In this document: positions 9,512 through 24,000 of the stretch, one piece after another
How the letters are laid out: each line of letters starts with the position of its first letter
Position numbering within the stretch: position 1 is the stretch's first letter
Source of the DNA: an uncultured Gammaproteobacteria bacterium
Lineage (GTDB): Bacteria > Patescibacteriota > Microgenomatia > UBA12405
Assembly: GCA_964434595.1 (NCBI GenBank)
Contig: CAYSVP010000005.1
Location: forward strand, 1 to 24,000
Reading direction: 5' to 3'
DNA length: 24,000 nucleotides
Notes under the pieces: generated by a model
What the model saw: only the letters and a program-made list of their open reading frames with translations
Databases searched by the model: none
What the model was told of the DNA's origin: nothing
Made by a program: the position numbers and the translations under genes

Positions 9512-10221
9512 TAGATACTCATGCCCATTTATCTGCTGAATTTAGAGGGGATATAAAAATTGATGGATTATCGTCGGTGATATTGTCGGCAAGCTGTCTC
9601 GCGGATTCAATTGATAATTTGAACATTGCAAAAACCAATAAAAAGTTATTACCAGCAATCGGGATTCATCCGCAAAATATTGAAGATAATCCTGACAAAC
9701 TAGAAGAATTAATGAGTCCTAACGTTTTTGCTATAGGTGAATGTGGTTTGGAATTTAACGAGGGAACGGATAAAGAAAAACAAATTACTGTTTTTAAACG
9801 CCAAATAGAGATGGCGAAAAAATATGATAAACCATTGATTGTTCACAGCCGAAAAGCTAGTGATGAAACATTAGAGATATTAAGAAATTATCAAAACTTA
9901 AGAGGGGTAATTCATTGTTATACCGGAGGGAAAAAACGAATTGATAAATATCTGGGAATATCCGACAACTGGTATATTGGTATCGATGGTAATCTGACTT
10001 ATGAAGTTGGATTGGAACAAGTTGTAATGTCAATCCCTAAAGATAGGCTGATTTTGGAGACTGATTCACCTTTTTTGACACCGATCCCCCATCGTGGAGA
10101 AAAAAATTGTCCGGAGTATATTCGATATATATATCAAAAGGTATCAGACATTTGGCAGATGAGTTTTGAACAGACAGAAAAAATAATTGATGAAAATGCC
10201 AAGAAATTATTTAGAATTTAG
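9508..10221 (+). CDS. tatD: TatD-family metal-dependent hydrolase/DNase
   Basis: Motifs MIDTHAHL, GECGLEF, PLIVHSR, VIHCYTG and LETDSPFL. The ATG overlaps the metG TGA (ATGA). Confidence 0.9.
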   Translation: MIDTHAHLSAEFRGDIKIDGLSSVILSASCLADSIDNLNIAKTNKKLLPAIGIHPQNIEDNPDKLEELMSPNVFAIGECGLEFNEGTDKEKQITVFKRQIEMAKKYDKPLIVHSRKASDETLEILRNYQNLRGVIHCYTGGKKRIDKYLGISDNWYIGIDGNLTYEVGLEQVVMSIPKDRLILETDSPFLTPIPHRGEKNCPEYIRYIYQKVSDIWQMSFEQTEKIIDENAKKLFRI

Positions 10222-10224
10222 ATC

Positions 10225-10467
10225 TTATTTTATAAAATCAGAAATAATATTCTCTAATTCTTTTTGACCGGGATATTTATCAATAAAAGTCACTTCACCA
10301 TTAATCAATAAAACAGTATTACCCTGGTAACCCATAGAATAAACCCGATTCATATCTTTAAAATACTCCGGGGAACAATCAAGTTGAAGTCTTTGGCAAA
10401 CAGCATCTAAATCAGCAAATAACTTTTTACCAGGTGGTAAACCGCGATCATAAAGTTGAATTCGCAT
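10225..10467 (-). CDS. Thioredoxin_3-like small thioredoxin-fold protein lacking the CXXC redox motif
   Basis: 80 aa. The layout matches the small MTH895-like thioredoxin family (MRIQLY..G....K.L...........L.........D......G......P.LLINGEV...G..P...EL), but the expected GCxxC reads GLPPGK. Confidence 0.5.
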   Translation of the reverse strand: MRIQLYDRGLPPGKKLFADLDAVCQRLQLDCSPEYFKDMNRVYSMGYQGNTVLLINGEVTFIDKYPGQKELENIISDFIK

Positions 10468-10470
10468 GGT

Positions 10471-11235
10471 CTATTTTACCATTGTTAAGTTTTTCAGCAA
10501 ACAAGCGATAGTCATTGGCCCAACTGAACCAAAGGGCGGAGTTATAAAACTACATTTATCCTTAACATCCTCATAATCTACATCTCCTCCACCAATATCA
10601 ACAACTATAGCACCAGGTTTGATATATTCACTGGTAACTAGTCCTTTTTGACCAGTGGCAGAAATTAACAAGTCAGCTCCCCTACTAATTTCTAATAAAT
10701 TTTGAGTAGATTTATCACATATAACAACATTTAGATGTTGATCAATTAACAATTTTTGAAGAGGAATACCGATTAGATTACTGGAATTAATAATTACCGC
10801 ATTTTTACCTGATAGATTAACTTTGGTGGATTTTAGGAGAGCCATAACCCCAATGTCAACCGCTGGAACAAAAGAAGACTGACTGGTAAGACCATCAACA
10901 TCTTTCCGTGGATCAATTTGCTCCAGAATATTGGGATTTATGTGTGCTGGTAGTGGTAGTTGGATAAAAAAACCGGTGACATTTTGGTCGAGATTAAGTT
11001 GGTTAATTAATAATTGTAATTCTGATTCAGTCGTATTTTCTGATAAATGATGAAATGTAAAATTAATACCGACCTGTTGACACTTTTTTTCTTTGAGAGA
11101 AACATATTTTAGACTAGAGGGGTCGTTGCCAACTAAAATAACATGTAAATTAATTGTCGATTGACGAGTAGTAATTTCTGATTTAATGTCAGAAAGAATT
11201 TGTTCTGATAGTATTTTACCGTCAAGAGAAATCAT
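10471..11235 (-). CDS. folD: Bifunctional methylenetetrahydrofolate dehydrogenase/methenyl-THF cyclohydrolase (compact form)
   Basis: Motifs YVSLKEKKCQQVGI, FIQLPLP, PRKDVDG, VVDIGG and GSVGPMTIACLLKN. 254 aa, shorter than the usual length of about 285 aa. Confidence 0.85.
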   Translation of the reverse strand: MISLDGKILSEQILSDIKSEITTRQSTINLHVILVGNDPSSLKYVSLKEKKCQQVGINFTFHHLSENTTESELQLLINQLNLDQNVTGFFIQLPLPAHINPNILEQIDPRKDVDGLTSQSSFVPAVDIGVMALLKSTKVNLSGKNAVIINSSNLIGIPLQKLLIDQHLNVVICDKSTQNLLEISRGADLLISATGQKGLVTSEYIKPGAIVVDIGGGDVDYEDVKDKCSFITPPFGSVGPMTIACLLKNLTMVK

Positions 11236-11990
11236 GGAAGGGTTAATATTTCTGAACCATTAGATGTAATCAATATTGTGTGTTCAAATTGACAAGATAA
11301 ACTACCATCGTGAGTACGAATAGTCCAACCATCACGACGATCGACAGTAATCTGCCAGTCGGGAGAGGCATTGATCATTGGCTCGATAGTAAAAATCATT
11401 CCTGGTTTGAGAATTACGTCGTTTCGTTTGGTCTGATGATGAAAAACAAAAGGATCTTCGTGGAAATCTAAACCGACACCGTGGCCACCACAATCACGAA
11501 CTGAAGAATAACCAAAGGGAGTAATATATTTTTCAATAACCTGGCCGACACACTCGTTCATACTCTTACCGGGTTTTAGAGATTTAATAGCTAATTCAAG
11601 TGATTTTTTTGTTCGATCAATTAATAAGGAGGTACTCGGAGATATTTTGCCGACCGGAAAAGTGACTGAAGTGTCACCATAATAACCATCAAGAATGGTG
11701 GTAATATCGATATTTACAATATCCCCTTCTTTAAGGATTTCTTTTTTGGAAGGGATTCCGTGACAGACAACATTATTAATGGAGGTACAAATACTTTTAG
11801 GAAAACCTTCGTAGTTTAGAGAGGCGGGAATTGCCCCATGGGAGATAATATACTGATGAGCAATTTGATTGAGAGATTCAGTGTTAATACCCGGCTTAAT
11901 GTAATTTTCCAAATGTTTAATAGATTGAGCGGCCAAACGACTGGAACGACGAATTCCATTGATTTGCTCGGTATTCTTTATAATTATCAC
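11232..11990 (-). CDS. map: Type I methionine aminopeptidase
   Basis: 252 aa with metal-ligand blocks VCHGIP, DIVNIDIT, GHGVG, FTIEP and QFEHT. GTG start at 11990. Its stop overlaps the folD ATG by 4 nt. Confidence 0.95.
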   Translation of the reverse strand: MIIIKNTEQINGIRRSSRLAAQSIKHLENYIKPGINTESLNQIAHQYIISHGAIPASLNYEGFPKSICTSINNVVCHGIPSKKEILKEGDIVNIDITTILDGYYGDTSVTFPVGKISPSTSLLIDRTKKSLELAIKSLKPGKSMNECVGQVIEKYITPFGYSSVRDCGGHGVGLDFHEDPFVFHHQTKRNDVILKPGMIFTIEPMINASPDWQITVDRRDGWTIRTHDGSLSCQFEHTILITSNGSEILTLP

Positions 11991-11997
11991 TGGGCTG

Positions 11998-12026
11998 ATT
12001 ATCGTCTTTTTTGACTAAATTGGCAA
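11998..12026 (-). promoter_or_regulatory. Putative promoter TTGCCA-17 nt-GATAAT, with the -10 ending 7 nt before the map GTG (11990)
   Basis: Minus strand: TTGCCA (12026-12021), a 17-nt spacer, GATAAT (12003-11998), then cagccca and GTG. Overlaps the divergent promoter at 12011-12039. Confidence 0.35.
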
Positions 12027-12039
12027 TAAGGAGTATATT
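12011..12039 (+). promoter_or_regulatory. Putative promoter TTGACT-17 nt-TATATT, with the -10 ending 7 nt before ATG 12047
   Basis: TTGACT at 12011-12016, a 17-nt spacer, TATATT at 12034-12039, then gggatta and ATG. Confidence 0.4.
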
Positions 12040-12046
12040 GGGATTA

Positions 12047-12319
12047 ATGAAGCTGACCAAGATGTTTTTGGTCTTAGTTTTAGCAAGTTTGGTTTTTGGA
12101 AAAAGTGCCTGGGCCTTAACACCGACAAAAGAAGCTGAAGAGATAGTAACTTTATCACCAACAACTGCAATCTCAATAGAACCAACAGTTCCAGATAAAA
12201 TTGTGGAAACACAATCGGAAAACGATTTATCAAAATGGTTTTTATTCATCACAATTGGTTTATTAGCTTTGATAATTACAGTACAGGTTTGGCCGGAGAA
12301 AAAAGAAAAAATTGAGTAA
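12047..12319 (+). CDS. Small secreted protein with a cleavable signal peptide and a C-terminal TM anchor (hypothetical)
   Basis: MKLTKMFLVLVLASLVFGKSAWA|LTPT... has an AXA cleavage site. A Thr/Pro/Glu-rich spacer follows, then C-terminal FLFITIGLLALIITVQVW and a charged tail. Preferred over the antisense 11917-12387 ORF because of its promoter geometry and signal peptide. Confidence 0.5.
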   Translation: MKLTKMFLVLVLASLVFGKSAWALTPTKEAEEIVTLSPTTAISIEPTVPDKIVETQSENDLSKWFLFITIGLLALIITVQVWPEKKEKIE

Positions 12320-12327
12320 AGATCAGA

Positions 12328-12333
12328 TATAAT
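12328..12333 (+). promoter_or_regulatory. Putative -10 box TATAAT, 7 nt upstream of the in-frame ATG at 12341
   Basis: Reads cagaTATAATggtggaaATG. It overlaps the track's ATG at 12332, suggesting the real start may be 12341. Confidence 0.3.
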
Positions 12334-13084
12334 GGTGGAAATGCAAAATCGAACATCTTGGAATAAAGTTAGTCGGTGGTATGACAAACAAGTCGGAGAT
12401 AAAGGCCATTATTATCATGAACATGTAATTATTCCGGGAATTAAAAAAATAATTGATTGGGATAGTTCGAAATCGCTATTAGATTTAGCCTGTGGTCAGG
12501 GAGTTTTGGGCAGGGAATGGCCGGGAAATAAGTATTTGGGAATTGATGTGGCGAGTAATTTGATTGCTGAAGCGAGACTAAGGGATAAAAACAATCAACA
12601 TAAATATCAGATAGGAGATGTTACTAAAAAATTAAAATTAGAAGAAAAGTTTGATGAGGCGATAATAATATTAGCTTTTCAAAATTTAAATAATCCAGCA
12701 ATGGTAATAAAAAATATCAGAGAGAATTTGACAGACAGAGGAAAGCTGTTGCTGGTTATTAACCATCCGGCATTCCGGGTACCAAAACACAGTGATTGGA
12801 TAGTAAAAAACTGGCGACAATTCCGAATGGTCGATAATTATATGTCACCTTTAGAAATTCCAATTGAAAGCCGTCCATTTGATAAGGTCGACAATCAAAC
12901 TACTTATTCTTTTCATTATCCCCTATCAATGATTAGTCAGATGTTATTTGATAACGGTTTGGTAATAGAAAAAATTGAGGAGTGGATTTCGGACAAAAAA
13001 TCTGAAGGTAGTATGGCAAAAATTGAAAATAAAGCCAGAAAAGAAATTCCCTTATTCATGGCAATTTTAGCAATGGTAAAATGA
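12332..13084 (+). CDS. Class I SAM-dependent methyltransferase
   Basis: Motif I LLDLACGQGVLG, post-I acidic GIDV and motif II/III region AIIILAFQNL. The start may be 12341 (MQNRTSW...) rather than 12332. Confidence 0.8.
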   Translation: MVEMQNRTSWNKVSRWYDKQVGDKGHYYHEHVIIPGIKKIIDWDSSKSLLDLACGQGVLGREWPGNKYLGIDVASNLIAEARLRDKNNQHKYQIGDVTKKLKLEEKFDEAIIILAFQNLNNPAMVIKNIRENLTDRGKLLLVINHPAFRVPKHSDWIVKNWRQFRMVDNYMSPLEIPIESRPFDKVDNQTTYSFHYPLSMISQMLFDNGLVIEKIEEWISDKKSEGSMAKIENKARKEIPLFMAILAMVK

Positions 13085-13088
13085 TTCT

Positions 13089-13295
13089 ATGCTAAAGACA
13101 AAACACAAAATCATTATTGTCGGAGCCTGGTTTGTAATTTTAGTTTTGATTTGTGTAATGAGCGCCAAATTTGAATTAAACAAAATTGATAATTGTGCAA
13201 AGTTACGAATCAGAGCATTTAACCAAAAAGATTTTACCTGGTCGGGAATTGTCGAACAAAATTCTGCTGGAACTTATCAACCGAAATGTTTATGA
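13089..13295 (+). CDS. Small membrane-anchored hypothetical protein (68 aa)
   Basis: ATG lies 4 nt after the methyltransferase stop. N-terminal TM IIIVGAWFVILVLICVM. The 3' end overlaps the convergent OFOR-beta stop by 6 nt. Confidence 0.4.
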   Translation: MLKTKHKIIIVGAWFVILVLICVMSAKFELNKIDNCAKLRIRAFNQKDFTWSGIVEQNSAGTYQPKCL

Positions 13296-13913
13296 CTTGA
13301 GTTGTTTACCAAAAGTAACACACGTTTGACGAATATCGATTAAAGAAAACTCAGGATTGGTAATAGCTGATTTGATAGCCGAGGTAATTTCTGGAAGCTC
13401 TGTACCATCAACTGATTTAACATCAATTTTGGGATTTACTGACTGAAGAACTTTGACTGGATTAAGAGCAAAACTGGGCGCACCTAGAGGGGTAGATTTA
13501 GTCTTGGAACCTTGAGGAGTAGTAGGACTAGTCTGCCCGGTAGTTAAGCTGTAGAGCTGGTTATTGGCAACTAAAACAGTGATATCTAAGTTATAACGAG
13601 CCGCAGAAAAAAGATGATTAAAGCCTTCTCCGTAAACTCCACCGTCACCACCAATAGCAATTACTGTTAATTTTGGATTAGCCATTTTTACTCCCATAGC
13701 AGTCGCAATGCTGCGACCATGGAGAGAGTGAATACCGTAAGTACTAAAAAAGTCAGCCATATTACCAACACAACCAATATCAAAAACTAAAACGACATCT
13801 TTTTTGGGAATTTGTAATTGAGTAATGGCTTGTTGAATAGCAGCGTAGAGGACAAAGTTATTACAACCAGGACAAAAAGTAGGAGTAATATTGGATTTTA
13901 GATTTTGAATCAT
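13290..13913 (-). CDS. 2-oxoacid:ferredoxin oxidoreductase, beta (TPP-binding) subunit
   Basis: FCPGCNNF, DIGCVGN and a C-terminal RQTC supply four Cys for a [4Fe-4S] cluster. TPP motif GGDGGVYGEGFNHL...NN. ATGA overlap with the alpha subunit gene. Confidence 0.85.
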   Translation of the reverse strand: MIQNLKSNITPTFCPGCNNFVLYAAIQQAITQLQIPKKDVVLVFDIGCVGNMADFFSTYGIHSLHGRSIATAMGVKMANPKLTVIAIGGDGGVYGEGFNHLFSAARYNLDITVLVANNQLYSLTTGQTSPTTPQGSKTKSTPLGAPSFALNPVKVLQSVNPKIDVKSVDGTELPEITSAIKSAITNPEFSLIDIRQTCVTFGKQLKS

Positions 13914-15490
13914 AGTAATTTAGACAATTCTTCGGGAAAGAATGGTCGGCCATCAAATTTTAATAAAACTTTGGTTGGATTAAAATCGAATTGAGATTTT
14001 AAAAGAGTAACTAATTGGGCAGTGGCGTTGTTTTCAATTACAGTAATATCTTTAAATGGTTTAATTAAAAGTTGAAGATTGGCATCGATTGGCCACATGG
14101 TTTTAATCTGAAGATAGGCATAATCTTGTTTGCCCCGCATTTTTAGGGTTTCCAGAATAGTCGATTTGGTTGATCCCCAGCCGATGATTAGTTTTTTAGC
14201 TGATTGATTACCGTAGAAAACCGGCTTTGGAGCGGCTTTGATAATTTTACTGACTTGAGCCAACCGAAGATTAACCATTTTATTTATTACTACCGGATCT
14301 TCAGTAGAAAAACCAGCGTCATCATGTTCATAACTATTGGCTAAATACTCTTTGTCGGCAGTTCCAGGAATAGGATTTTGAGAAGTGATAATTTTGACTT
14401 TTTTAAGAGAAAGGTCGGGAAGTGAAGCACCGGATTCAGAGATATATTTATCAGAAACCAAAATAACCGGGATATTAAATTTGGCGGCTAGATTCAATGA
14501 TTCGGCACCAAGTTCGAATGATTCCTGTTGATCGCCGGGGGCAAGAACAATTTTATTGAATTCACCATGTCCGGCATTGATTGCAAATAATAAATCACCC
14601 TGAGAAGTCCAAGTAGGTAGACCGGTAGCGGGCCCGGGTCGAGAGACTAAGTAAAACAAAACTCCGAGATTAGTGGCACCACAAAGACTAACTGTCTCGA
14701 CCATTAGAGCAAAACCACCACCACTAGTTCCAGTGGCGGCTCTGGCTCCAGCAAAGGCGGCACCAGCGGCTAAGGAAGCGGCAGCAATTTCATCTTCGGG
14801 ATGAACAACTTTAATTTTTTGTTCGACCTGTTTTGCGGCTAAAAAGTGCAGAGTGCCAGTGGCTGGAGTCATTGGATAAGCGGTATAAAAATTACCACCA
14901 CCTTTTAAATATCCCCAACCAAAGGCTTCATTACCATCATAAACACAGGTACCAGATTTAGGCTGAGCAACTTTGTCTAGTTTAAATTGCTTAAATTTAT
15001 TATCTTTGGCAAATTCATAACCAAGGCAAAAAGCATCAATATTGCGATTATCTTTGAAAAATGTTTGCTGAATAATTTTTTGACAAATTTGAGAATTGAG
15101 ATTGAAAATGTAGGCGGCGACTCCAAGACAAATTGTGTTGGCAAAAATATTACCACCAGCTTTGTTGGACAATTCTTGGATAGGGAGTAGATTTTTAGCA
15201 TCTTCACCGCAGACAATAGTATCCTTCTCAAACTCATCTTTGTGTTGTTGCCAATGACCGGAAGCTAAAGAAAAGAAAACATCGATTTTTTGGTGAATAG
15301 TGAATATTTGGTCTTGAGAAAAACTAACCTGATAGGTGTTGTGGCCACCACGGATAAGAGAAGGATATTCCGAATAATCCCGTATATTGTAGCCATGGGC
15401 AATTAATATTTTTGAGAGGAGTAAACCACTGGATTTGATACCGGCACCGGCCGGACCAGCAATTTTTATTGAATAAGTTTTTAAAGACAT
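13910..15490 (-). CDS. 2-oxoacid:ferredoxin oxidoreductase, fused gamma-alpha subunit
   Basis: N-terminal POR-gamma-like block IKIAGPAGAGIKSSG..., followed by an alpha domain (NEAFGWGYLKGGGNFYTAYPMTPAT, GAAFAGARAATGTSGGGFALM). Confidence 0.85.
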   Translation of the reverse strand: MSLKTYSIKIAGPAGAGIKSSGLLLSKILIAHGYNIRDYSEYPSLIRGGHNTYQVSFSQDQIFTIHQKIDVFFSLASGHWQQHKDEFEKDTIVCGEDAKNLLPIQELSNKAGGNIFANTICLGVAAYIFNLNSQICQKIIQQTFFKDNRNIDAFCLGYEFAKDNKFKQFKLDKVAQPKSGTCVYDGNEAFGWGYLKGGGNFYTAYPMTPATGTLHFLAAKQVEQKIKVVHPEDEIAAASLAAGAAFAGARAATGTSGGGFALMVETVSLCGATNLGVLFYLVSRPGPATGLPTWTSQGDLLFAINAGHGEFNKIVLAPGDQQESFELGAESLNLAAKFNIPVILVSDKYISESGASLPDLSLKKVKIITSQNPIPGTADKEYLANSYEHDDAGFSTEDPVVINKMVNLRLAQVSKIIKAAPKPVFYGNQSAKKLIIGWGSTKSTILETLKMRGKQDYAYLQIKTMWPIDANLQLLIKPFKDITVIENNATAQLVTLLKSQFDFNPTKVLLKFDGRPFFPEELSKLL

Positions 15491-15563: not shown

Positions 15564-16010
15564 TTAGTTTTTGGGTTGATTCTGAATAGGATTGAGTTGG
15601 ACATTTTGAGCAGTAACACTACCATCAGTATTAGTTGAACCAAAAATCATTACTCTTTCGCCAACTTTGAGATCACTAAAAACGGCTTGAGTGGCTTTAT
15701 TAATTGATGTTTTTTCGGTAAAAAGAACAATTTTACTGCTACCATTGGCCATCTTAACAGTAATCGAATTGCTGTCATTACTGGAAATTTCACCCATAAC
15801 GTTGCCACCCATATTAGATCGATTACCACTACCATTTTTTAAATTATTACCACCAAATTCCATTTGACCCGGTGGATTGCCCATCATCATATTACGACGA
15901 CCTTTGTTTTGACTGATTTTACTACCAGCAAAAAAGCCAATAGCAGTAAATATAATGGCGATAATAATAGTAACTAGGAGATGTTTGTTTGACTGGAAAA
16001 ATTTTGACAT
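15564..16010 (-). CDS. Secreted/anchored DUF5666-like beta-domain protein with a Gly/Met/Asn-rich linker
   Basis: N-terminal TM LLVTIIIAIIFTAIGFFAG and the low-complexity stretch RRNMMMGNPPGQMEFGGNNLKNGSGNRSNMGGNVMG. The following ITVKMANGSSKIVLFTEKTSI....SDLKVGERVMIFGSTNTDGSVTAQNVQL resembles DUF5666-type repeats. Confidence 0.55.
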   Translation of the reverse strand: MSKFFQSNKHLLVTIIIAIIFTAIGFFAGSKISQNKGRRNMMMGNPPGQMEFGGNNLKNGSGNRSNMGGNVMGEISSNDSNSITVKMANGSSKIVLFTEKTSINKATQAVFSDLKVGERVMIFGSTNTDGSVTAQNVQLNPIQNQPKN

Positions 16011-16077
16011 TTTTTGTTTAATAATTAATTTTATTTGATACTAGTTTAATTTTAACAACTGAAGATTAACTGATATT

Positions 16078-17304
16078 TTATTCGTAACGGAGGGCTTCGA
16101 TTGGTTGAAGATTAGAGGCCCGACGAGCAGGATACCAGCCAAAAATAATACCAATGGCAACGGAAACAACAAAGGCTAAAACTATTGAACCAAGAGAAAC
16201 GGTAAAAATTGAAGCGTTAGCCAGAGCATAAACGTAAGAAACTAAAATTCCAATAATGATACCAATAATACCGCCGACAAAAGTTAGCAAAGCTGATTCC
16301 ATTAAGAATTGATAAATGATAGTCTTTTTTTTGGCTCCCAAAGCTTTACGAAGACCAATTTCCCGAGTTCTCTCGGTAACAGTGACTAACATGATATTCA
16401 TAATACCGATACCACCAACAACAAGAGAAATAGCGGCAACACCGGATAAAAGTGTTGTGAATGTCCCCGAAACTTCAGTGGCGGTACTTAAAATATCTTC
16501 TTGATTCATAATTCGAAAATCAACTTTAGAAGTATCAGTGATTTTATGACGAGCCATTAGTAGATAACCGATTTCGTTAACTGCTTGATCCATGACATCA
16601 GAGCTATTAGCGACAACAGAAATAGAACTAAGATGATTGACTCCAAATAATTGTTTTTGAGCGGTTGTAAGAGGGACATATACCCGATCATCCTGACTTT
16701 CCATGCCAGTACTACCCTTGGCAACAGTCACACCAATAACAGTAAAATTTTGACCGCCAATTCTAATGGTTTCACCAACTGGATCATAATTGGAATCATC
16801 AAAAAGGTCTTCGACCACTGTTGGGCCCAAAACTACTACTCGAGTCATTGAATCAATATCATGTTGAGTAATAAAACTGCCAGAGGCAATTTCAATGTTG
16901 TGAACTTCCAGATAGTCTGAAGTAGCACCCATAACGGTAGTATTAGTATTATTTTCACCGGTAACAATTTGGGATCGGGAAGAATATTCAGGTGAAACAC
17001 TTTTAACAGTAGTAACACTATCGGAAGAGAGAATAGCGTCGGCATCTTTTTTAGTTAAAGTGGTGGTATTAGAGATTCCCCTTACCATTCCAGATCGTTG
17101 AAAATTTGGTGAAATAGTTAAAAGATTAGAACCGAGTGATTGAATTTGAGACTGAACTGCTTTTTGACTGGATTGACCCAATGAAACCAGAGCAATGACA
17201 GAACCAATACCGATTATAATTCCTAGCATAGCCAAACCAGTTCTCATTTTATTGAGACGAAGAGTACTGATACTTTCAATAAATAGTTCCCATAATTCGG
17301 TCAT
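16078..17304 (-). CDS. MacB-type ABC transporter permease (FtsX/MacB_PCD architecture)
   Basis: I prefer ATG 17304 (MTELWELFIESISTLRLNKMRTGLAMLGIIIGIGSV...). TM1 is followed by a periplasmic domain of about 220 aa and a C-terminal FtsX 3-TM bundle (REIGLRKALGAKKK...). Confidence 0.9.
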   Translation of the reverse strand: MTELWELFIESISTLRLNKMRTGLAMLGIIIGIGSVIALVSLGQSSQKAVQSQIQSLGSNLLTISPNFQRSGMVRGISNTTTLTKKDADAILSSDSVTTVKSVSPEYSSRSQIVTGENNTNTTVMGATSDYLEVHNIEIASGSFITQHDIDSMTRVVVLGPTVVEDLFDDSNYDPVGETIRIGGQNFTVIGVTVAKGSTGMESQDDRVYVPLTTAQKQLFGVNHLSSISVVANSSDVMDQAVNEIGYLLMARHKITDTSKVDFRIMNQEDILSTATEVSGTFTTLLSGVAAISLVVGGIGIMNIMLVTVTERTREIGLRKALGAKKKTIIYQFLMESALLTFVGGIIGIIIGILVSYVYALANASIFTVSLGSIVLAFVVSVAIGIIFGWYPARRASNLQPIEALRYE

Positions 17305-17311
17305 AATTTTT

Positions 17312-18022
17312 TTATTTAATAATTTTTCGAGTTTTGTTGATGCAATCCTGTTGGATTTTTCCATCTCTAATAGTAATAATTCTTTTGGCATGTTCGGCAA
17401 TATCCGGTTCGTGAGTAATCATAACAATAGTCCGGCCATCATTATTTAATTGTTGGAATATTGCCATTACTTCTTCGGCTTGATCAGAGGCAATATTACC
17501 GGTTGGTTCATCAGCAAGAATCATATCGGGATCCATTACCAGGGATCGGGCAATAGCTACCCGTTGTTGTTGACCTCCGGAAATTTGATTGCTGGTGTGT
17601 TGGAGACGGTTGCCAAGACCAACCATTTTGAGGTATTTTTCAGCAGTAGTAATCCTTTCTTCTTTGGGAACACCACCATAGACCATGGGAATCATGACAT
17701 TTTTTAAGGTAGTGGTTCGAGATAGAAGATTAAAAGCCTGAAAGATAAAACCGATTTTACGATTACGGATTTCTGATAATTCGTCATCTGATAATTTTTC
17801 GACATTCTTACCGCCAAGAATATATTCTCCTTTTGTCGGCTTATCCAAAGCCCCGAGAATATGCATTAAAGTTGATTTTCCGGAGCCGGAAGGCCCCATA
17901 ATGGCAACAAATTCACCTTTTTTAATTTCAAAAGAGATGTCGTCAAGAGCGACAGTTTCCAGAACATCAGTTTTGTAAATTTTTGATAAATGAGAAACTT
18001 TAATAATGGTAGTATCACTCAT
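17312..18022 (-). CDS. ABC transporter ATP-binding protein (MacB/LolD-type)
   Basis: I prefer ATG 18022 (MSDTTIIKVSHLSKIYK). Walker A GPSGSGKST, signature ISGGQQQR, Walker B ILADEPT and the H-loop ITHE are all present. Confidence 0.95.
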   Translation of the reverse strand: MSDTTIIKVSHLSKIYKTDVLETVALDDISFEIKKGEFVAIMGPSGSGKSTLMHILGALDKPTKGEYILGGKNVEKLSDDELSEIRNRKIGFIFQAFNLLSRTTTLKNVMIPMVYGGVPKEERITTAEKYLKMVGLGNRLQHTSNQISGGQQQRVAIARSLVMDPDMILADEPTGNIASDQAEEVMAIFQQLNNDGRTIVMITHEPDIAEHAKRIITIRDGKIQQDCINKTRKIIK

Positions 18023-18035
18023 ATTTTTATGATAT

Positions 18036-19382
18036 TTAATTTCTGAGAGGGGCACCCATGCCACCCATGCCACCCATATTATTGCCGCCAAAGAGTGAAG
18101 AACCGGAAGAACTGGATGATTTAGTATTGGTAGTTTTACTACCGGAAGTATTAATACTGGAAGTTATAACCACGTCGCCTTCATTAATACCGGAAATAAT
18201 TTCAATTTGAGTATCATTGCTATCACCGATTTCAACGGTTATCGTAGTTGGTTGATTATCCTTCATTATTTGGATTGTGGATTGACCATTAAAGGTTTTA
18301 ACTGCAGTAGAAGGAATCAAAATAACATCTGATTTTGTCGAAGTGATAATAGTAGCGGAAACGGCCATGTTGGTGTAAATATCCAAAGTAGTTTCATCGA
18401 GTAAAACAGTAGCGGTGTAGGAAGTGACATTGGAATTGACACTACCACTGGTATTAACAGCTAAAATTGATCCGGTTAAAGTAATATCAGGAAAAGCATC
18501 CATGGTAAGGGTAACTTTTTGACCGGATTGAATTTTGGTAACATCAACTTCAGTAAGACTTAAAGTAGCTTGATATTTACCTTGAGGATTTTTTATTGCC
18601 CCGATTTTCTGAGAACTGACAGAGATTGAATCACTAGAAGAATCAGTGCCAGTACTAACAGTGATTGAAGAGTTTGAACTGTCACTAATAACTACACCCT
18701 CAGCCAAAATTAGGTTGTTGACTACACCCGAAGCAGGAGCATAAATTACTCCGGAAACTTTTTGATAATTTCTCCAGGCCGCTTGAACTTTTGATTTGGC
18801 CAAAGTAATATCTACAGCGGAATTATTATATATAAGTTCATCGGCAGTAAAAGTTTTTTTTGCCAATTCTAAGGTCTTTTCAACGATAGCTTTTTCATTA
18901 TAGGTATACTCGGCTTTAGTTTTTGGATTCCAGCCACCGGCGTACATATTGTTATATTCTTCTGTAGCATCTAAAACTGTTTGACGATCTTTCCACATTT
19001 GAATATCGGCGGACAAGCGATTGGCTTCGGCAGTTTTCTGATTTTCAACAGCATTTTGATAATTCGCCCAGGCAGTGGTTTGGGTTTCACTACCAATATC
19101 ATCCAGAGTGAGTTCGGCTAGTTTCTGATCTTTTTTGACAGTGTCTCCATTTTTTACATAAACTTTTTTAACTGTACCACTAGCTCCGGTAGTGATATAA
19201 GTAACATTGCCAGAAGTTATTGTTCCCGAGGCAGAAATAGAATTAATTAGAATACCTTTTTCAGCAGTGCTAGTTTGATAATTAATTTGAGTTTTTTTAG
19301 ACGCAAATATTTTTGTATAAGCAAAATACCCTGCTCCGATAAGAGCAATAATACCAATAATTATGGTTGTCTTTTTTTTCAT
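18036..19382 (-). CDS. HlyD/MacA-family periplasmic adaptor (membrane fusion protein) with a Ser- and Gly/Met-rich C-terminal tail
   Basis: N-terminal anchor TIIIGIIALIGAGYFAY, lipoyl-like GTVKKVYVKNGDTVKKDQKLAEL, a long coiled-coil hairpin and a beta-barrel domain. The tail reads SSSSSGSSLFGGNNMGGMGGMGAPLRN. Confidence 0.85.
   Translation of the reverse strand: MKKKTTIIIGIIALIGAGYFAYTKIFASKKTQINYQTSTAEKGILINSISASGTITSGNVTYITTGASGTVKKVYVKNGDTVKKDQKLAELTLDDIGSETQTTAWANYQNAVENQKTAEANRLSADIQMWKDRQTVLDATEEYNNMYAGGWNPKTKAEYTYNEKAIVEKTLELAKKTFTADELIYNNSAVDITLAKSKVQAAWRNYQKVSGVIYAPASGVVNNLILAEGVVISDSSNSSITVSTGTDSSSDSISVSSQKIGAIKNPQGKYQATLSLTEVDVTKIQSGQKVTLTMDAFPDITLTGSILAVNTSGSVNSNVTSYTATVLLDETTLDIYTNMAVSATIITSTKSDVILIPSTAVKTFNGQSTIQIMKDNQPTTITVEIGDSNDTQIEIISGINEGDVVITSSINTSGSKTTNTKSSSSSGSSLFGGNNMGGMGGMGAPLRN
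18053..18077. repeat. 2.8 tandem copies of the 9-bp unit CACCCATGC (encodes the GMGGMGGMG tail of the adaptor on the minus strand)
   Basis: Direct reading: cacccatgc cacccatgc cacccat. Confidence 0.8.
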
Positions 19383-19398
19383 GGAAAAATTTTAATGG

Positions 19399-20409
19399 CT
19401 ATATCTGAAAAATAACTGTAAATATTGCACCTTTGTTGGGAATACTTCTGACGGTTATATGACCATGATGTTGATCAATAATTTTTTTGGCGATGGAAAG
19501 GCCCAGGCCATAACCTCCAACATCGACTTTGGAACGAGACTGGTCAGCCCGATAAAAGCGATCAAAGATGTGGGGTATGTCTTTATCATCAATACCAATG
19601 CCATGATCTTTAACAGACAAATAGAGATGATTATTTTTAATTTCCGAGCGAAGAATTATTTTCTGATTTTTTGGACTGTATTTAATGGCATTGTCGATAA
19701 GAATTACCAATAAATCAACCACGGAAGATTGATCACAATCAAAATCTAATTTTTTAGTCCGATTGATGATGGTAATATTTTTTTTCAAAGCTAATGGACG
19801 AGTACGAATTAAAACCCGATCAATGATTTCGGCTAGTGAGTTTTTGGTTTTAATAATTTTTTGATTGGATGTCGGAGATTGAATTAACTTAATTAGACCA
19901 TCCGATAAATTCTGAAGATGATTGACTTCTTCGAGATTGTCTTTGATTAATTTTTTTGATTCCTGAATAGTAAATTTCGGATCACGAAGACTAACTTCAA
20001 GAGAACTCTTGAGAGCAGTAATGGGAGTTCGAAGTTCATGGGATGAATCGGAAATAAAACGATTCTGTTCTTCAACCATTTTGGCAATAGGTTTTAAGGT
20101 TTTTCCGGCTAGAAAAAAGCTTAAGGCGCCAGAGATAGAGATAATGCCAAGATTAACAATTAGCAAATTTAATAATAGTCGGTTTTTTGTTTCTTCGATT
20201 AATTCGTCATCGATAGTAGGCGGAGGTGGAAGAAAATAATTGTCATTGTTGTTATTTATCCGTCGTTCGATTCTGATTCTCTGGGACATGGCAAAACGAT
20301 TTATTTCATTGGATACCAACTGATAGATAATAAAGCTAAAAACAAAGCTAATAACCATAATGATGACCAAATACCAGGCGGTAAGTTTTAGACGGGCATT
20401 ATTGAACAT
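19399..20409 (-). CDS. Sensor histidine kinase (2 TM, HisKA + HATPase_c)
   Basis: H-box SDSSHELRTPITAL, N-box LVILIDNAIKYS, G1 DHGIGI and G2 GGYGLGLSIAKK. Two TM helices flank a loop of about 45 aa. Confidence 0.9.
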   Translation of the reverse strand: MFNNARLKLTAWYLVIIMVISFVFSFIIYQLVSNEINRFAMSQRIRIERRINNNNDNYFLPPPPTIDDELIEETKNRLLLNLLIVNLGIISISGALSFFLAGKTLKPIAKMVEEQNRFISDSSHELRTPITALKSSLEVSLRDPKFTIQESKKLIKDNLEEVNHLQNLSDGLIKLIQSPTSNQKIIKTKNSLAEIIDRVLIRTRPLALKKNITIINRTKKLDFDCDQSSVVDLLVILIDNAIKYSPKNQKIILRSEIKNNHLYLSVKDHGIGIDDKDIPHIFDRFYRADQSRSKVDVGGYGLGLSIAKKIIDQHHGHITVRSIPNKGAIFTVIFQI

Positions 20410-20453
20410 AAAATTTTAAAGTCTAAATTTTAAAAATAAAATAAACATTCACT

Positions 20454-21128
20454 TTATTCACCAAGTTTATAACCGAAACCACGAATGGTGTTGATTAGAG
20501 GCTTTTTATTGGTGAAAGGAGTATCAATTTTGCTGCGCAAATTTTTTATATAGACTTCGACTGTGTTGGTGAGAATATTGGCATCATAGTTCCAAACATG
20601 AGAAATTATTTGGTTTTTATTGATAATTTGGTGAGAATGTCGGATTAGATATTCCAACAAAGAAAATTCTTTACTGGACAAAGTTATTCGACGGCCAGCG
20701 CGATTGACTTCAAAGGTTCTCGTATTTAAGGTTAAATCCTCAAGAGTAATGATGTCGCCAAAAGAATTGTGGGGACGACGAGATAAAGCTCGGATACGAG
20801 CCAATAATTCTTCAAAAGAAAATGGTTTGACTAAATAATCGTCGGCTCCCATGTCAAGACCTTTTACTTTATCCTCTGTCTGACCGCGGGCAGTTAGAAT
20901 TAAAATCGGCACATGATTACCTTTTTGGCGTAATTGTTGGCATATTTTTAGACCATCCATGCCCGGTAACATTAGATCTAATATAATTAGATCGTAATCT
21001 TCGGTACTGGCTAAATCGTAACCATCAAGACCATTGTAAGCAACATCAACAGCATAACGTTCGAGCTCGAGACCTTTTTTAATCGAATTAGCAATACGAT
21101 GTTCGTCCTCGACAACTAAAATTCTCAT
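20454..21128 (-). CDS. OmpR/PhoB-family response regulator
   Basis: Receiver domain (MRILVVEDE, DLIILDLMLPGMDG, KP) plus a winged-helix Trans_reg_C domain (LSSKEFSLLEYL...TIRGFGYKL). Confidence 0.95.
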   Translation of the reverse strand: MRILVVEDEHRIANSIKKGLELERYAVDVAYNGLDGYDLASTEDYDLIILDLMLPGMDGLKICQQLRQKGNHVPILILTARGQTEDKVKGLDMGADDYLVKPFSFEELLARIRALSRRPHNSFGDIITLEDLTLNTRTFEVNRAGRRITLSSKEFSLLEYLIRHSHQIINKNQIISHVWNYDANILTNTVEVYIKNLRSKIDTPFTNKKPLINTIRGFGYKLGE

Positions 21129-21234: not shown

Positions 21235-22512
21235 ATGCTTAAAAACTTGACGGTTTTTAAATCTGACAAACAAAAAATTAATGACAGTAAATTCGAAGTA
21301 GTGGAGAGAAAGGGTGTTGGACATCCGGATAATTTATGCGATGCCATTGCTGAAAAAATCTCGGTTGAATATTCACAGCACTGTTTTAAAAAATACGGTA
21401 TAGTACTGCGTCATATGGTGGATAAAGTAGCCATATTAGGGGGATCATCTAAGGTCAGTTTTGGACACGGGGAAATGACAGCGCCAATACGACTATTACT
21501 TAATGGTAGATTTACTCATCAATTTAAAGAGGAAAAGATTGATTATTTAGATATTACTAATCGAGTTATTAAAAATCATTTTAAAAATATTTTTCCGTTA
21601 TTAGATACCGAAAAATGGTTAAAAATTGTTGATAATACCCACTTTACCCAAGGACCCGGAGTAGTATACAGTCAAGACGGGACAACAAAAAATGAAAGAA
21701 GTCAATTTTTTTGCGTATCTGACGATAATTTTGCAAAACATCATTGCAATGGATTCCGGTCAAATGATACCTCGACTACGGTTAGTTATGCACCTCTATC
21801 AGATCTAGAAAAAATAGTAATTCTGTCAGAAAATTGGCTAAATTGTTCAGATTTTAAACAAAATCATTTATATGTCGGCAGTGATATAAAAGTGATGGGA
21901 AAAAGAATTAATAAAAATATTGAATTAACTTTATGTGTGCCGTTTATTGCTGACTATACACCTGACCAAAATTTTTATATTCAAAAATTAGGAGAATTAA
22001 AACAGTTATTAATCGATAAAATTAAAAAAGAATTTCCATTATATTTAGTAGATATTTTTTTAAACACCCGGGATAATTTTAATAATCAGGATATTTATTT
22101 AACGGCAATTGGTAGTGCAGTTGAAAGCGGTGACGAAGGGGCAGTAGGACGGGGAAATAGAACTAATGGAGTAATTCCATTTACCAGAAATATGAGTACT
22201 GAAGCACCTTGTGGAAAAAATCCGGTATATCATACCGGAAAAATTTTTACTGTTATTGGTGATATTGTGGCCGAGGAAATATATAAAAAATTAGGAGTAG
22301 AGAATACGATTTATTTAACTTCCCAAATGGGTCGGGATATGAATGATCCATGGCAGGTTACGGTGGCACTAGATGGATATAAAAACGATATTAATATTGA
22401 TCTGAAGAAAAAAATTGAAAAGATTGTAGAAAAAAATTTAAGACGACATTGGGAAGTAACTCAACAAATTATCGATGGACAGATCAAGATTTACGAACCA
22501 AATTTATCCTAA
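21235..22512 (+). CDS. mat: Archaeal-class S-adenosylmethionine synthetase (methionine adenosyltransferase, PF01941-type)
   Basis: Blocks VERKGVGHPDNLCDAIAE, SNDTSTTVSYAPLS, VGSDIKVMG and YLTAIGSAVESGDEGAVGRGNRTNGVIPFTRNMSTEAPCGKNPVYHTGKI match archaeal MAT hallmarks as I recall them. The bacterial MetK hallmarks (GAGDQG, GGGAFSGKD) are absent. Confidence 0.88.
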   Translation: MLKNLTVFKSDKQKINDSKFEVVERKGVGHPDNLCDAIAEKISVEYSQHCFKKYGIVLRHMVDKVAILGGSSKVSFGHGEMTAPIRLLLNGRFTHQFKEEKIDYLDITNRVIKNHFKNIFPLLDTEKWLKIVDNTHFTQGPGVVYSQDGTTKNERSQFFCVSDDNFAKHHCNGFRSNDTSTTVSYAPLSDLEKIVILSENWLNCSDFKQNHLYVGSDIKVMGKRINKNIELTLCVPFIADYTPDQNFYIQKLGELKQLLIDKIKKEFPLYLVDIFLNTRDNFNNQDIYLTAIGSAVESGDEGAVGRGNRTNGVIPFTRNMSTEAPCGKNPVYHTGKIFTVIGDIVAEEIYKKLGVENTIYLTSQMGRDMNDPWQVTVALDGYKNDINIDLKKKIEKIVEKNLRRHWEVTQQIIDGQIKIYEPNLS

Positions 22513-22530: not shown

Positions 22531-23220
22531 TTAGAATTGTATTTTTTCTCCAGGAAAAATACTTTTGGTCGCACCAGAGAGTGAATAAATATTGACCGGA
22601 TCAAAACCCACTGATTCAGCTATTAAATCTTTGGATATTATTAAACCTGACCGTTCGGTTAAGGCAACTAAATCACCTTTTTGTTGATTAATAAAATTGT
22701 CAACTGAATTAATTTTTTCCGAAGTAAAATGACAAAGAACTGATCTGTTATTAAGAAGATTTAATCCATTATCGTATGAGTAATTAGCATCATTTTCCTC
22801 TGATACGGTAGATATAGTTTTTCCCATAATAATAGCGCCAGCACTACCACCATAAATTAAACCACCTTGGTTATAAAACTCGAGTAAAAGATTATTAAAC
22901 CCAGTTTTAATAATATGATCGAGGAGTTTATAGGTATTACCACCACCAATATAAATACCACTAAACTTTTCCAAATCTTTAATTGTTTTGTTTTTTAAAT
23001 CTGTCCACATACTAATTTCAGTAAAATCGTCTGAGGCTTTGGTTAGAGTTGAGGTGATCCAATCAAAACAACTTTCATAGCCATTTTCTTTGGGCCCTAG
23101 GGCAATAGGGATATAAATAATTTTTTTAGTTGGCAGTTGTGATAGAAATTTTTTGTCAAGATGAAGACTATCGGCTGATCCCCCACCACCACCAAGAAAC
23201 AGTTTACCTTTACTAATCAT
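22531..23220 (-). CDS. Peptidase S51 family protein (dipeptidase E / cyanophycinase-like Ser-His-Glu hydrolase), cytoplasmic
   Basis: IYIGGGNTYKLLDHI and LIYGGSAGAIIMG (nucleophile Ser), VLCHF (His) and LTERSG (Glu) align with my recollection of PepE. No signal peptide. The ATG overlaps the upstream stop by 8 nt (ATGATTAG). Confidence 0.8.
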   Translation of the reverse strand: MISKGKLFLGGGGGSADSLHLDKKFLSQLPTKKIIYIPIALGPKENGYESCFDWITSTLTKASDDFTEISMWTDLKNKTIKDLEKFSGIYIGGGNTYKLLDHIIKTGFNNLLLEFYNQGGLIYGGSAGAIIMGKTISTVSEENDANYSYDNGLNLLNNRSVLCHFTSEKINSVDNFINQQKGDLVALTERSGLIISKDLIAESVGFDPVNIYSLSGATKSIFPGEKIQF

Positions 23221-24000
23221 GAGAATATTTTAGTTCACCAAGAACCACTGTTAAATAATCAGATTTGACACTAGTGCCTTTTAGTTGTTTGATCAACATG
23301 TCGGTGGGTTGATTAATATTAAGCTCAACATCTGGACAATGAGTAGACAGTTTATCTAACAATAGACGATTAAAATTTCGCGTATTTTCCTGAGCTAAAG
23401 ATTCGATTGACTGATTTAATGGAGACACAAGTTTAGTCCATTTTTCCCAGTAATTATAATATTTCTTGGCTTGTTCCTGACTGATTAAATGTTCTCCCAG
23501 GGCATTGTTAACTAATTTTTTGGAAAATAATCTAAAACGATAACCGTGCTCTTTATTGGATGGTTTTAAGCCTTCGCCAGCCAGTAAAGAAAGGGTATGA
23601 GAACAGGCGGCAACGTCACCGGTTATTTCATGAGAAACCCGACCATCACCTAAAATATCAAAATAGGAACCTCCTTGTAAAATCCATTTAATCCTCTCTA
23701 AACCAAAACCAATATCACTGAGAGTTAAGTTTGGTCTGGTTTTCTGAGGAAGATCCTGAATATATGAAGCATCACCAATTTCCAGACCATCATAGATAAT
23801 AAACATTTTCTGACTGTTAATTATTTTATCCCCCCACTGTTGTTGATATGGTTTATTTTTGAAAGAAAAATCATCTTTATTTAAACCAAGCTGAACAAAT
23901 AAATCCAACCAGGTTTGTAAATACTGGTAATGTTGTTCCTGACTACCATTAAGATGACAAGTTGAGACGTTGATAAAACTAGTCGAAGTACCCTCACAGA
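23213..24000 (-). CDS. Alanyl-tRNA-synthetase-like protein: class IIc catalytic core (C-terminal part seen) + tRNA-recognition helical domain only; no editing or C-Ala domains; 5' end off-window
   Basis: Motif 3 DIGFGLERI (23693-23716) and PSNKEHGYRFRLFSKK (compare AlaRS PSNENRGYVLRRIIRR) identify the family. The track's TTG at 23908 is not the start. Manual translation stays open to base 24000 (...CEGTSTSFINVSTCHLNGSQEQHYQYLQTW-LDLF...). The protein stops about 150 aa after motif 3. Confidence 0.8.
   Translation of the reverse strand, partial: CEGTSTSFINVSTCHLNGSQEQHYQYLQTWLDLFVQLGLNKDDFSFKNKPYQQQWGDKIINSQKMFIIYDGLEIGDASYIQDLPQKTRPNLTLSDIGFGLERIKWILQGGSYFDILGDGRVSHEITGDVAACSHTLSLLAGEGLKPSNKEHGYRFRLFSKKLVNNALGEHLISQEQAKKYYNYWEKWTKLVSPLNQSIESLAQENTRNFNRLLLDKLSTHCPDVELNINQPTDMLIKQLKGTSVKSDYLTVVLGELKYSHD

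Follow-up and report, generated by a model that had tools for sequence, protein, structure and literature searches.

A conserved gene module of an AlaRS-like protein, an S51-family hydrolase and an archaeal-type SAM synthetase in CPR bacteria and DPANN archaea

Introduction

Paralogues of aminoacyl-tRNA synthetases (aaRSs) that work as amino-acid ligases or transferases are a known theme, and the gene set described here brings a new set of partners to it. The genes are found at the right-hand end of the window, which is a stretch of 24,000 nucleotides (positions 1 to 24,000 of contig CAYSVP010000005.1, assembly GCA_964434595.1) from a genome labelled as an uncultured Gammaproteobacteria bacterium and placed by GTDB in Patescibacteriota. 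They encode a ligase-like protein related to alanyl-tRNA synthetase (AlaRS), here called ALA, an S51-family hydrolase, here called S51, and an archaeal-type methionine adenosyltransferase (MAT), the enzyme that synthesizes S-adenosylmethionine (SAM).

The archaeal AlaRS catalytic fragment (Archaeoglobus fulgidus 2ztg and 3wqy, Pyrococcus horikoshii 2zze) has the same fold and domain order as ALA. The two share the motif-2 arginine, the EI..Q strand, a motif 3 of the form D-x-G-x-GLER, the PSN-GY-R helix and, in some ALA members, a Cys-rich ribbon. Compared to canonical AlaRS, ALA has only about 15% identity, lacks the editing, C-Ala and dimerisation domains and carries EIGD instead of EIWN in the pocket. 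It also coexists with a canonical AlaRS in one locus (L005) and sits in a metabolic gene cluster.

AcmF, which takes part in ascamycin biosynthesis in Streptomyces, is a truncated AlaRS-like protein that is reported to use Ala-tRNA as donor and to have lost most of the residues for ATP and alanine activation, with N219Q and D232E among the reported changes (PMC12945691). Compared by description only, AcmF and ALA share a build of aminoacylation and tRNA-recognition domains, a probable use outside translation and a hydrolase partner; AcmF is paired with AcmE, which takes the aminoacyl group off again. AcmE belongs to the alpha/beta hydrolases, whereas the partner here belongs to S51, and the AcmF product is a secondary metabolite. 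The loss of activation residues is not seen in ALA, which keeps D233 and the motif-2 and motif-3 arginines; the asparagine of the AlaRS EIWN strand, which may or may not correspond to AcmF N219, is an aspartate in ALA. The acceptor of AcmF is a 5'-modified adenosine, which is suggestive beside the adenosyl-transferring MAT of the present loci.

The mycothiol and bacillithiol scheme combines a glycosyltransferase, a deacetylase and an aaRS-like ligase (PMC7278568). The larger loci found here match this logic, with counterparts of the GT4 glycosyltransferase (MshA/BshA), the PIG-L deacetylase (MshB/BshB), the inositol-phosphate synthase and phosphatase, and the ligase (MshC/BshC). N-methyl-bacillithiol offers a precedent for SAM-dependent N-methylation as a tailoring step, and Mca of mycothiol metabolism and AcmE are likenesses for S51 as a turnover or recycling amidase or esterase. 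MshC derives from the class I CysRS, whereas ALA derives from the class II AlaRS, and ALA is homologous to neither MshC nor BshC. Neither pathway has an S51 protein or a dedicated MAT, and most loci here, including the window, lack the glycosyltransferase and deacetylase genes.

The described relatives of S51, PepE aspartyl dipeptidase and cyanophycinase, share with it the Pfam S51 family, the GGSAG nucleophile elbow and the Ser-His-Glu triad. In contrast to them, S51 has an aaRS-like ligase or a glycosyltransferase as its neighbour or fusion partner. AsnA, EpmA/PoxA, GluQRS, the amino acid:carrier-protein ligases and GlyQ all use a class II (or class I) core to aminoacylate something beyond the tRNA 3' end, and GlyQ and archaeal AsnA are among the weaker Foldseek matches to ALA. 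Among these other aaRS-derived enzymes with non-translational roles, we know of none that descends from AlaRS with the helical domain kept, and of none linked to S51 or a SAM synthetase.

Conservation of the ALA/S51/MAT module

The window edge is part of a conserved three-gene ALA/S51/MAT module of the Candidate Phyla Radiation (CPR; Patescibacteria) and DPANN archaea. The N-terminus of ALA lies beyond the edge, and the complete gene is found on two identical contigs (L001 and L128). A protein search retrieved its product from L001 (P0001; 399 aa, 100% identical over the fragment), plus 70 relatives. A scan of species-representative genomes, with our own calling and clustering of open reading frames (ORFs), gave 46 loci. 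S51 lies directly 3' of ALA and in the same direction in 34 of the 46, and the two ORFs overlap in 28 of these 34 pairs. The loci without S51 are mostly cut by a contig end, or are archaeal loci where S51 is two genes away on the opposite strand. S51 homologues were found in 39 of 47 sources, and MAT homologues stand beside the ALA/S51 pair in 36 of 47. A search started from S51 found both ALA and MAT on three of four long contigs.

The linkage was also seen from the MAT side, in a metagenome scan restricted to loci with at least 2.5 kb on both flanks. Among MATs scoring at least 430 bits against the module-MAT profile, 18 of 20 have ALA or S51 nearby (16 with ALA and 16 with S51), compared to 0 of 9 below 430 bits. 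The profile used for ranking derives from MATs of the module, which makes the ranking partly circular; the adjacency itself does not depend on it.

Several fusion proteins join the module members to each other or to further enzymes. ALA is fused to S51 in P0137 (568 aa), to a class I methyltransferase in P0175 (589 aa) and to a glycosyltransferase in P0206 (708 aa), and S51 is fused to a GT1 glycosyltransferase in L008 and L010 (570 aa). These fusions place ALA, S51, glycosyltransferase and SAM-dependent methyltransferase in one process.

An earlier note on this window, made from its letters, had described a candidate two-gene module in which the ALA stop overlaps the S51 start by 8 nt, and had left the conservation of this adjacency to be compared across related genomes. 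The overlap is confirmed (Table 1) and, judged from the sequence, has the geometry of translational coupling. The adjacency is conserved in relatives, with most pairs overlapping and one fused, which upholds the functional tie between ALA and S51. The count of two genes falls short: the module has at least three, with MAT as a dedicated member (18/20 vs 0/9).

Most loci come from CPR genomes, including Paceibacteria, Shapirobacteria, Yanofsky-, Nomura-, Adler-, Taylor- and Giovannonibacteria and bins labelled Saccharibacteria. Eight loci are from DPANN or unclassified archaea (Woesearchaeota, Nanoarchaeota, Micrarchaeota and two bins labelled 'archaeon'). A few records carry other labels, namely Gammaproteobacteria (L002, L004, L008), Clostridia (L009), Bulleidia (L011) and Bacillota (L036). 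Either these are mislabelled or contaminated bins, or the module reaches some Bacillota. Two loci (L086, L104) come from human gut metagenomes.

Table 1. Positions in the window of the module genes, their conserved elements and the surrounding genes
Feature	Position	Strand	Basis or remark
ALA, C-terminal 261 codons (residues 139-399 of 399)	23213..24000	-	translation; second half of class II catalytic core and helical AlaRS-type domain
S51-family hydrolase, 229 aa, type 1 glutamine-amidotransferase-like fold	22531..23220	-	PF03575
Archaeal-type MAT (SAM synthetase), 425 aa, 'F2' clade	21235..22512	+	PF01941; convergent with S51
Overlap of ALA stop and S51 start, 8 nt, ATGATTAG	23213..23220	-	S51 ATG and upstream TAG
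ALA class II motif 3, SDIGFGLER (P0001 residues 232-240)	23693..23719	-	alignment
ALA Asn286 of the PSN motif	23555..23557	-	alignment to A. fulgidus and E. coli AlaRS
S51 triad, Ser126	22843..22845	-	homologue conservation
S51 triad, His164	22729..22731	-	homologue conservation
S51 triad, Glu189	22654..22656	-	homologue conservation
MAT clade-specific segment, residues ~104-176	roughly 21544..21762		poor alignment to M. jannaschii MAT
OmpR-type response regulator	20454..21128	-	Pfam label from identical contigs
HisKA histidine kinase	19399..20409	-	Pfam label from identical contigs
YknX-like membrane-fusion protein	18036..19382	-	Pfam label from identical contigs
ABC ATPase and MacB/FtsX permease	16078..18091	-	Pfam label from identical contigs
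DUF5666 protein	within 15564..21128	-	Pfam label from identical contigs
Class I methyltransferase	12332..13084
MetRS	8075..9511	+	12 kb from the module
Housekeeping genes	940..15490

ALA is an AlaRS paralogue

The 70 relatives of P0001 are 350 to 417 aa long, and the family keeps a length of 350-415 aa, clustered around 395 aa. The fragment in the window alone gave weak matches that cover only the motif-3 region (archaeal AlaRS model, E=0.0045; GlyQ, E=0.047). Full-length P0001 matched A. fulgidus AlaRS (2ztg) with E=2e-6 over residues 50-248 and 273-301 in a phmmer search, and a profile of 35 family members matched archaeal AlaRS with E=2e-11, as well as the catalytic fragments of E. coli and other bacterial AlaRSs. 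The structure of P0001 was predicted with AlphaFold2 from the family alignment (pLDDT 92, pTM 0.90). The top Foldseek match of this model is archaeal AlaRS (E=1e-16, TMq 0.66, ~15% identity), followed by bacterial and human AlaRS catalytic fragments and then GlyQ. The GlyRS alpha subunit was rejected as a closer relative, with only weak matches (E=0.047-0.1) and fold scores below those of AlaRS.

P0001 reaches only 30-32 bits against the AlaRS models TIGR00344 and TIGR03683, with cut-offs of 457 and 745, and 22.8 bits against PF01411 (cut-off 30.3); two family members score 34-37 bits against the latter. Pfam searches of P0001 gave no match to tRNA_SAD or DHHA1, the models for the editing and C-Ala domains, and the protein ends 159 aa past motif 3. 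By its profile matches and predicted fold, ALA is a stand-alone paralogue of the archaeal-type AlaRS catalytic fragment. In a subtype with an N-terminal Cys-rich (Zn) ribbon, the ribbon aligns with the archaeal AlaRS N-terminus in a profile alignment, which points to an archaeal-type AlaRS ancestor.

Searched against 1.84 billion representatives, the family profile retrieved 281 proteins with E≤1e-30 and 426 with E≤1e-10, counted as clusters at 50% identity. Aligned members are 22-75% identical to P0001 and keep both the length and the invariant residues. In L005, a canonical AlaRS (444 bits, with tRNA_SAD) is encoded on the same contig as ALA, 8 kb away, and no editing or C-Ala gene was found near ALA among the surveyed loci.

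The earlier note had read an AlaRS core with its helical domain, ending about 150 aa past motif 3 without editing and C-Ala domains, from the fragment in the window. The full-length protein and its predicted fold bear this out, and the longer contigs supplied the missing N-terminus and the upstream genes that the note had hoped to recover. The intact 399-aa ORF, the conserved family length and the canonical AlaRS of L005 also agree with its view of a stand-alone protein; ALA is neither a pseudogene nor one half of a split alaS, outcomes that the note had named as refuting.

Two different ALA paralogues, at 4840-5994 (+) and 6682-7863 (-), flank a single S51 gene beside the module MAT in L134. 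One scores 379 bits; the other scores 204 bits, belongs to the Zn-ribbon subtype and has GLEIGIANY in place of GLEIGDA. Two amino acids could be added in that organism.

Active site and helical domain of ALA

Among the 35 aligned family members, Q127, P128, R131 (motif 2), S145, F146 and E211 are invariant or nearly so, as are S232, D233, G235, G237, E239 and R240 of motif 3; of these, S232, D233, G237, E239 and R240, the motif-3 arginine, are strictly invariant. The alignments to AlaRS were computed, and residue roles are given after AlaRS. R131 aligns with R69 of E. coli AlaRS, and D233 and G235 align with D235 and G237 (DTGMGLER; position 235 in 3hxu). We take E. coli D235 to be the binder of the alpha-amino group. 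ALA thus presents AlaRS-type motifs 2 and 3 and the presumed alpha-amino-binding aspartate in an AlaRS-type fold. The retention of both class II arginines and of this aspartate argues that nucleotide and amino-acid binding are retained.

The amino-acid pocket has been remodelled. The AlaRS strand E-I-W-N-x-V-F-M-Q reads E-I-G-D-A-x-Y-I-Q in the ALA family (GLEIGDAxY). G213, at the position of the AlaRS tryptophan, is invariant, D214, at that of the asparagine, is conserved in at least 90% of members, and the valine position is variable; the Zn-ribbon subtype has I or V for the aspartate. Because of this change from EIWN to EIGD, alanine specificity is not to be assumed, and the amino acid used by ALA is, as far as the pocket residues indicate, probably not alanine.

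In the helical domain, N286 (at least 90%), G290, R294 and K298 are conserved in a helix that aligns with the AlaRS PSN-GY-R segment. N286 was aligned to the PSN asparagine through 2ztg (346-374) and 3hxu. This asparagine, Asn359 in A. fulgidus and Asn303 in E. coli AlaRS, is presumably the one that reads G3:U70, and N286, R294 and K298 correspond to AlaRS residues that we take to be tRNA contacts. The position of what we assume to be the second G3:U70 reader, an aspartate in AlaRS, is not conserved (LKGTS vs LYDTYG). The net charge and pI of the helical domain are near neutral, as in canonical AlaRS, and do not discriminate for or against tRNA binding.

The S51 hydrolase

The S51 protein matches PF03575 with 85 bits (cut-off 23.9) and stays below the NCBIfam equivalog cut-offs of both described functions (PepE, 37.6 vs 156 bits; cyanophycinase, 31.1 vs 126.6 bits). 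Among proteins of solved structure, it is closest to Lmo0363 of Listeria (3l4e), which is uncharacterised. The catalytic triad, which the earlier note had called intact, is indeed well kept across 36 cluster-linked homologues (S126, 100%; H164, 97%; E189, 92%). Sub-threshold matches to GATase_3 (4e-5), SNO/PdxT (1e-4) and CobQ were also recorded, and the sources label the protein 'type 1 glutamine amidotransferase-like'.

The module MAT

The window MAT scores 348 bits against PF01941 and 235 bits to the Methanocaldococcus jannaschii MAT (7p83), with its motifs intact. Module MAT homologues, from bacterial and archaeal loci alike, score 290-347 bits against the NCBIfam MAT models, all below the cut-offs of 435-577. 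All residues that are invariant in lower-scoring MATs are kept in the F2 clade. A MAT-like protein with an altered active site is not supported, as no position is conserved but different relative to other archaeal-type MATs. We regard the F2 MAT as most likely a genuine SAM synthetase with a dedicated role in the module.

A segment of the F2 MAT (residues ~104-176) is specific to the clade and contains the clade-invariant P141, G142, R155 and F159. Conservation confined to this clade is seen at R155, R279, S298, W373 and other positions. The segment is a possible adaptation to the partners or to regulation. Four loci (L068, L073, L074 and L117) have the module-type MAT and S51 without ALA (e.g., L073:169-3575). 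S51 is followed in these by a canonical ProRS (566 bits, cut-off 437), an APH/choline-kinase-like gene and a GT2. The ProRS is either a chance neighbour or a ligase stand-in.

Accessory genes

Neighbours were counted over 77 ALA-bearing loci. MAT is present in 66, a count inflated by the 31 loci that were found via MAT, and S51 in 62. A SerRS-like gene occurs in 33, under a label that was assigned by iterated searches and may cover further class II aaRSs. Glycosyltransferases (about 20 loci), inositol-1-phosphate synthase (11), radical SAM (10), Amidohydro_2 (five), methyltransferase (three) and carbamoyltransferase (three) genes are less frequent, and genes of the IMPase, HAD, NT5C, NUDIX, DegT aminotransferase and GT4 families appear in some loci.

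Two architectures recur. In the minimal one, to which the window belongs, SerRS is divergent, ALA and S51 form the pair and MAT is convergent. The expanded operon has the order (Ino1/IMPase)-MAT-ALA-S51-glycosyltransferase-(GT4, PIG-L, methyltransferase); in one group of loci, MAT heads a co-directional operon of MAT, ALA, S51 and glycosyltransferase. L005 carries Ino1-MAT-ALA-S51-glycosyltransferase-methyltransferase and L133 carries MAT-ALA-S51-GT1-PIG-L. PIG-L adjoins GT4 in L133 and in L089 (BshB1 model, 109 bits), so that GT4, PIG-L deacetylase and ligase are co-located in both.

The neighbouring SerRS and ProRS were considered as specialised paralogues and rejected, since both exceed their equivalog cut-offs. 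No dedicated tRNA, T-box or riboswitch was consistently linked to the module. Genes for aaRSs recur nearby (MetRS, SerRS, ProRS, ThrRS-like), which may only mirror their density in small genomes; a MetRS homologue is directly 5' of ALA in an archaeal locus (L044:5281-7278, -). A LOOT RNA (RF03000; 54 bits, gathering threshold 46.4) was detected about 6 kb from the module on one CPR contig (L007:16711-16834, -). An NT5C-type 5'-nucleotidase gene is directly 5' of ALA in two loci (L018:9092-9721 and L032:148-747), and NUDIX and PduO-type adenosyltransferase genes are near others. They form a faint nucleoside theme, which would fit an adenosine-type acceptor.

Surroundings of the module in the window

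L128, the longer identical contig, shows the full ALA gene and its upstream neighbours. A 552-aa protein without Pfam match, a 421-aa protein with weak SH3-like matches and a sortase are encoded 5' of ALA there (L128:778-4370); the sortase and the surface-protein-like genes give this side a cell-surface theme. The other flank of the module (15564-21128) holds a response regulator, a histidine kinase, a YknX-like protein, an ABC transporter and a DUF5666 protein (Table 1), with Pfam labels taken from the identical contigs L128-L131. This regulator/kinase/YknX/MacB-FtsX order was found only in the lineage of the window. The more distant housekeeping genes include those for UbiA prenyltransferase, MurJ flippase, TatD, FolD, methionine aminopeptidase and a pyruvate:ferredoxin oxidoreductase subunit. 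A class I methyltransferase and a MetRS gene also lie in this part, and no glycosyltransferase, PIG-L or inositol gene was found in the window. Promoter and terminator sites predicted in L128 were no more frequent than in shuffled sequence.

Proposed function and alternatives

Our preferred reading, which we hold tentatively, is that the module comprises an ATP-dependent amino-acid ligase of AlaRS ancestry for a non-tRNA acceptor, probably an amino-sugar glycoside, together with S51 and a dedicated MAT. Judging from its retained residues, ALA would bind ATP and an alpha-amino acid and form an aminoacyl-adenylate. The aminoacyl group would then pass to a non-tRNA acceptor, probably the free amine of a de-N-acetylated amino-sugar glycoside. 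A glycoside is proposed because of the GT4, PIG-L or amidohydrolase and inositol-phosphate genes in the larger loci and because of the fusions. In the expanded loci, GT4 may make an N-acetylglucosamine-type glycoside, built on inositol phosphate in loci that have Ino1 and IMPase; PIG-L or the amidohydrolase may free the amine, and the aaRS-derived ligase may aminoacylate it. S51 would act on the same metabolite, either as an aminoacyl amidase or esterase (in turnover, proofreading or recycling of the conjugate) or as an acyl-enzyme transferase. MAT would supply SAM for tailoring by the methyltransferases and radical-SAM enzymes of some loci; alternatively, SAM itself could be a direct substrate. 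We infer the order of the steps, the adenylation and the acceptor class from homology, conserved residues, linkage and fusions.

Several observations weigh against this proposal. Genes for glycosyltransferases, deacetylases and inositol metabolism accompany only about a quarter of the loci, and the window locus and L128 have the three core genes only. The minimal trio comes without an obvious SAM-using enzyme, and the MAT ranking carries the circularity mentioned above. Since S51 is found together with PIG-L or an amidohydrolase, it is not simply the deacetylase. The tRNA-contact-type residues N286, R294 and K298 and the SerRS gene of 33 loci fit a tRNA-linked role too. The earlier note had proposed that the pair makes an aminoacylated product and trims or recycles it; adenylation and aminoacyl transfer are still favoured, whereas trimming is only one of several possible roles of S51. 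Its label of tRNA recognition for the helical domain holds for the ancestry of the domain, but no tRNA link was found near the module.

In a tRNA-linked role, ALA would bind or charge tRNA as a mini-AlaRS without editing, and S51 would work on the aminoacyl-tRNA, either as an esterase in trans-editing or, through an acyl-enzyme, as a transferase of the amino acid to a glycan. As a variant, ALA could be AcmF-like and take a pre-charged aminoacyl-tRNA as donor. We regard such a role as unlikely, though it deserves attention, as the ALA architecture is that of an AlaRS aminoacylation and tRNA-recognition fragment, with the PSN N286 and the basic R294 and K298 of the same helix conserved. Canonical SerRS genes lie beside 33 of the 77 loci, with MetRS, ProRS and a ThrRS-like gene in single loci; yet genomes of this small size are rich in aaRS genes, and by their scores the aaRSs next to the module are canonical housekeeping enzymes. 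AcmF is a precedent for a truncated AlaRS-like, aminoacyl-tRNA-dependent transferase with a hydrolase partner, AcmE, but it is reported without most ATP/alanine-activation residues (PMC12945691), whereas ALA keeps the motif-2 arginine, the motif-3 arginine and D233. The position of the second G3:U70 reader is not conserved in ALA, the module has no consistent link to a tRNA gene, a T-box or another RNA element, and the glycosyltransferase and methyltransferase fusions and the MAT link would be left unexplained. Rather improbable, in our view, is a direct use of SAM, in which S51 and/or ALA would convert or capture its amino-acid moiety and ALA would ligate it to an acceptor. Candidates would be azetidine-2-carboxylate, 1-aminocyclopropane-1-carboxylate (ACC), homoserine lactone, or SAM bound as a mimic of an aminoacyl-adenylate. 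The MAT clade hardly occurs outside the module, MAT-S51 pairs persist without ALA in four loci, and the minimal trio has no other SAM-using enzyme. The remodelled pocket (W to G213, N to D214) fits as well, and human AlaRS with Aze-SA (5v59), a structure in the Foldseek match list, shows that AlaRS can bind azetidine-2-carboxylate. The ProRS after S51 in the four loci without ALA would also agree, but it is canonical (566 vs 437 bits) and the four loci may be one lineage. A supply of SAM has an ordinary explanation in the neighbouring methyltransferase and radical-SAM genes, the idea of SAM as substrate is inferential throughout, and no enzyme of the S51 fold is known to us to act on SAM.

S51 and ALA as a two-subunit amidotransferase are very unlikely. 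S51 would hydrolyse an amide (Gln or Asn) and pass the ammonia to the acyl-adenylate of ALA, as in AsnA-type synthetases. The sub-threshold GATase_3, SNO/PdxT and CobQ matches and the source label of S51 fit this scheme, the tight coupling and the fusion of ALA and S51 resemble synthetase/glutaminase pairs, and an archaeal asparagine synthetase A (3reu) is among the fold matches of ALA. However, glutaminases have a Cys nucleophile, whereas that of S51 is Ser, and S51 peptidases are its best family match. D233, aligned to the presumed alpha-amino binder, implies activation of the alpha-carboxyl group, and amidation would then give an amino-acid amide without obvious use. The glycosyltransferase fusions and the SAM link would also remain unexplained. 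A reading of ALA as a truncated pseudogene of alaS, or as one of the two parts of a split housekeeping AlaRS, that has S51 and MAT beside it by chance is barely credible. The window itself holds only a fragment that runs off the edge, and a split AlaRS is known in Nanoarchaeum. On the identical contigs, however, the 399-aa ORF is intact; the length and invariant residues of the family are conserved at 22-75% identity, the L005 contig carries a canonical AlaRS while no editing or C-Ala gene is nearby, the neighbourhood is conserved, and fusions exist. The ligase for a non-tRNA acceptor remains our preferred reading.

Novelty and implications

Full-text literature searches found no description of the ALA family or of the module, in agreement with the earlier note, which could assign the locus to no described pathway. 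Pfam and NCBIfam hold no model for the ALA family, and the sources call its members 'hypothetical protein'. ALA thus represents a family of AlaRS descent that has not been described before, with roughly 280-430 clusters (50% identity), fixed partners and informative fusions. Only a few aaRS paralogues are involved in non-translational aminoacyl transfer, and each of them (MshC, EpmA, GluQRS, AsnA and AcmF) revealed new chemistry. The module loci offer a ready set of operons for heterologous reconstitution, such as MAT-ALA-S51-GT4-PIG-L.

The module occurs mainly in the CPR and DPANN radiations, whose ultrasmall members depend on hosts and keep very few biosynthetic pathways. The possibility that ALA, S51 and MAT give these organisms a new, self-contained pathway in which SAM is a building block and not a methyl donor, its amino-acid moiety or a small amino acid derived from it being captured by the AlaRS-derived active site and ligated to a sugar, inositol or nucleoside, is a long shot. 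If true, it would define a new class of aminoacylated metabolites, which might serve as redox buffer, compatible solute, surface decoration or aaRS-targeting toxin. The retention of the module in such genomes and its apparent exchange across domains suggest that its product is likely important for the CPR/DPANN lifestyle.

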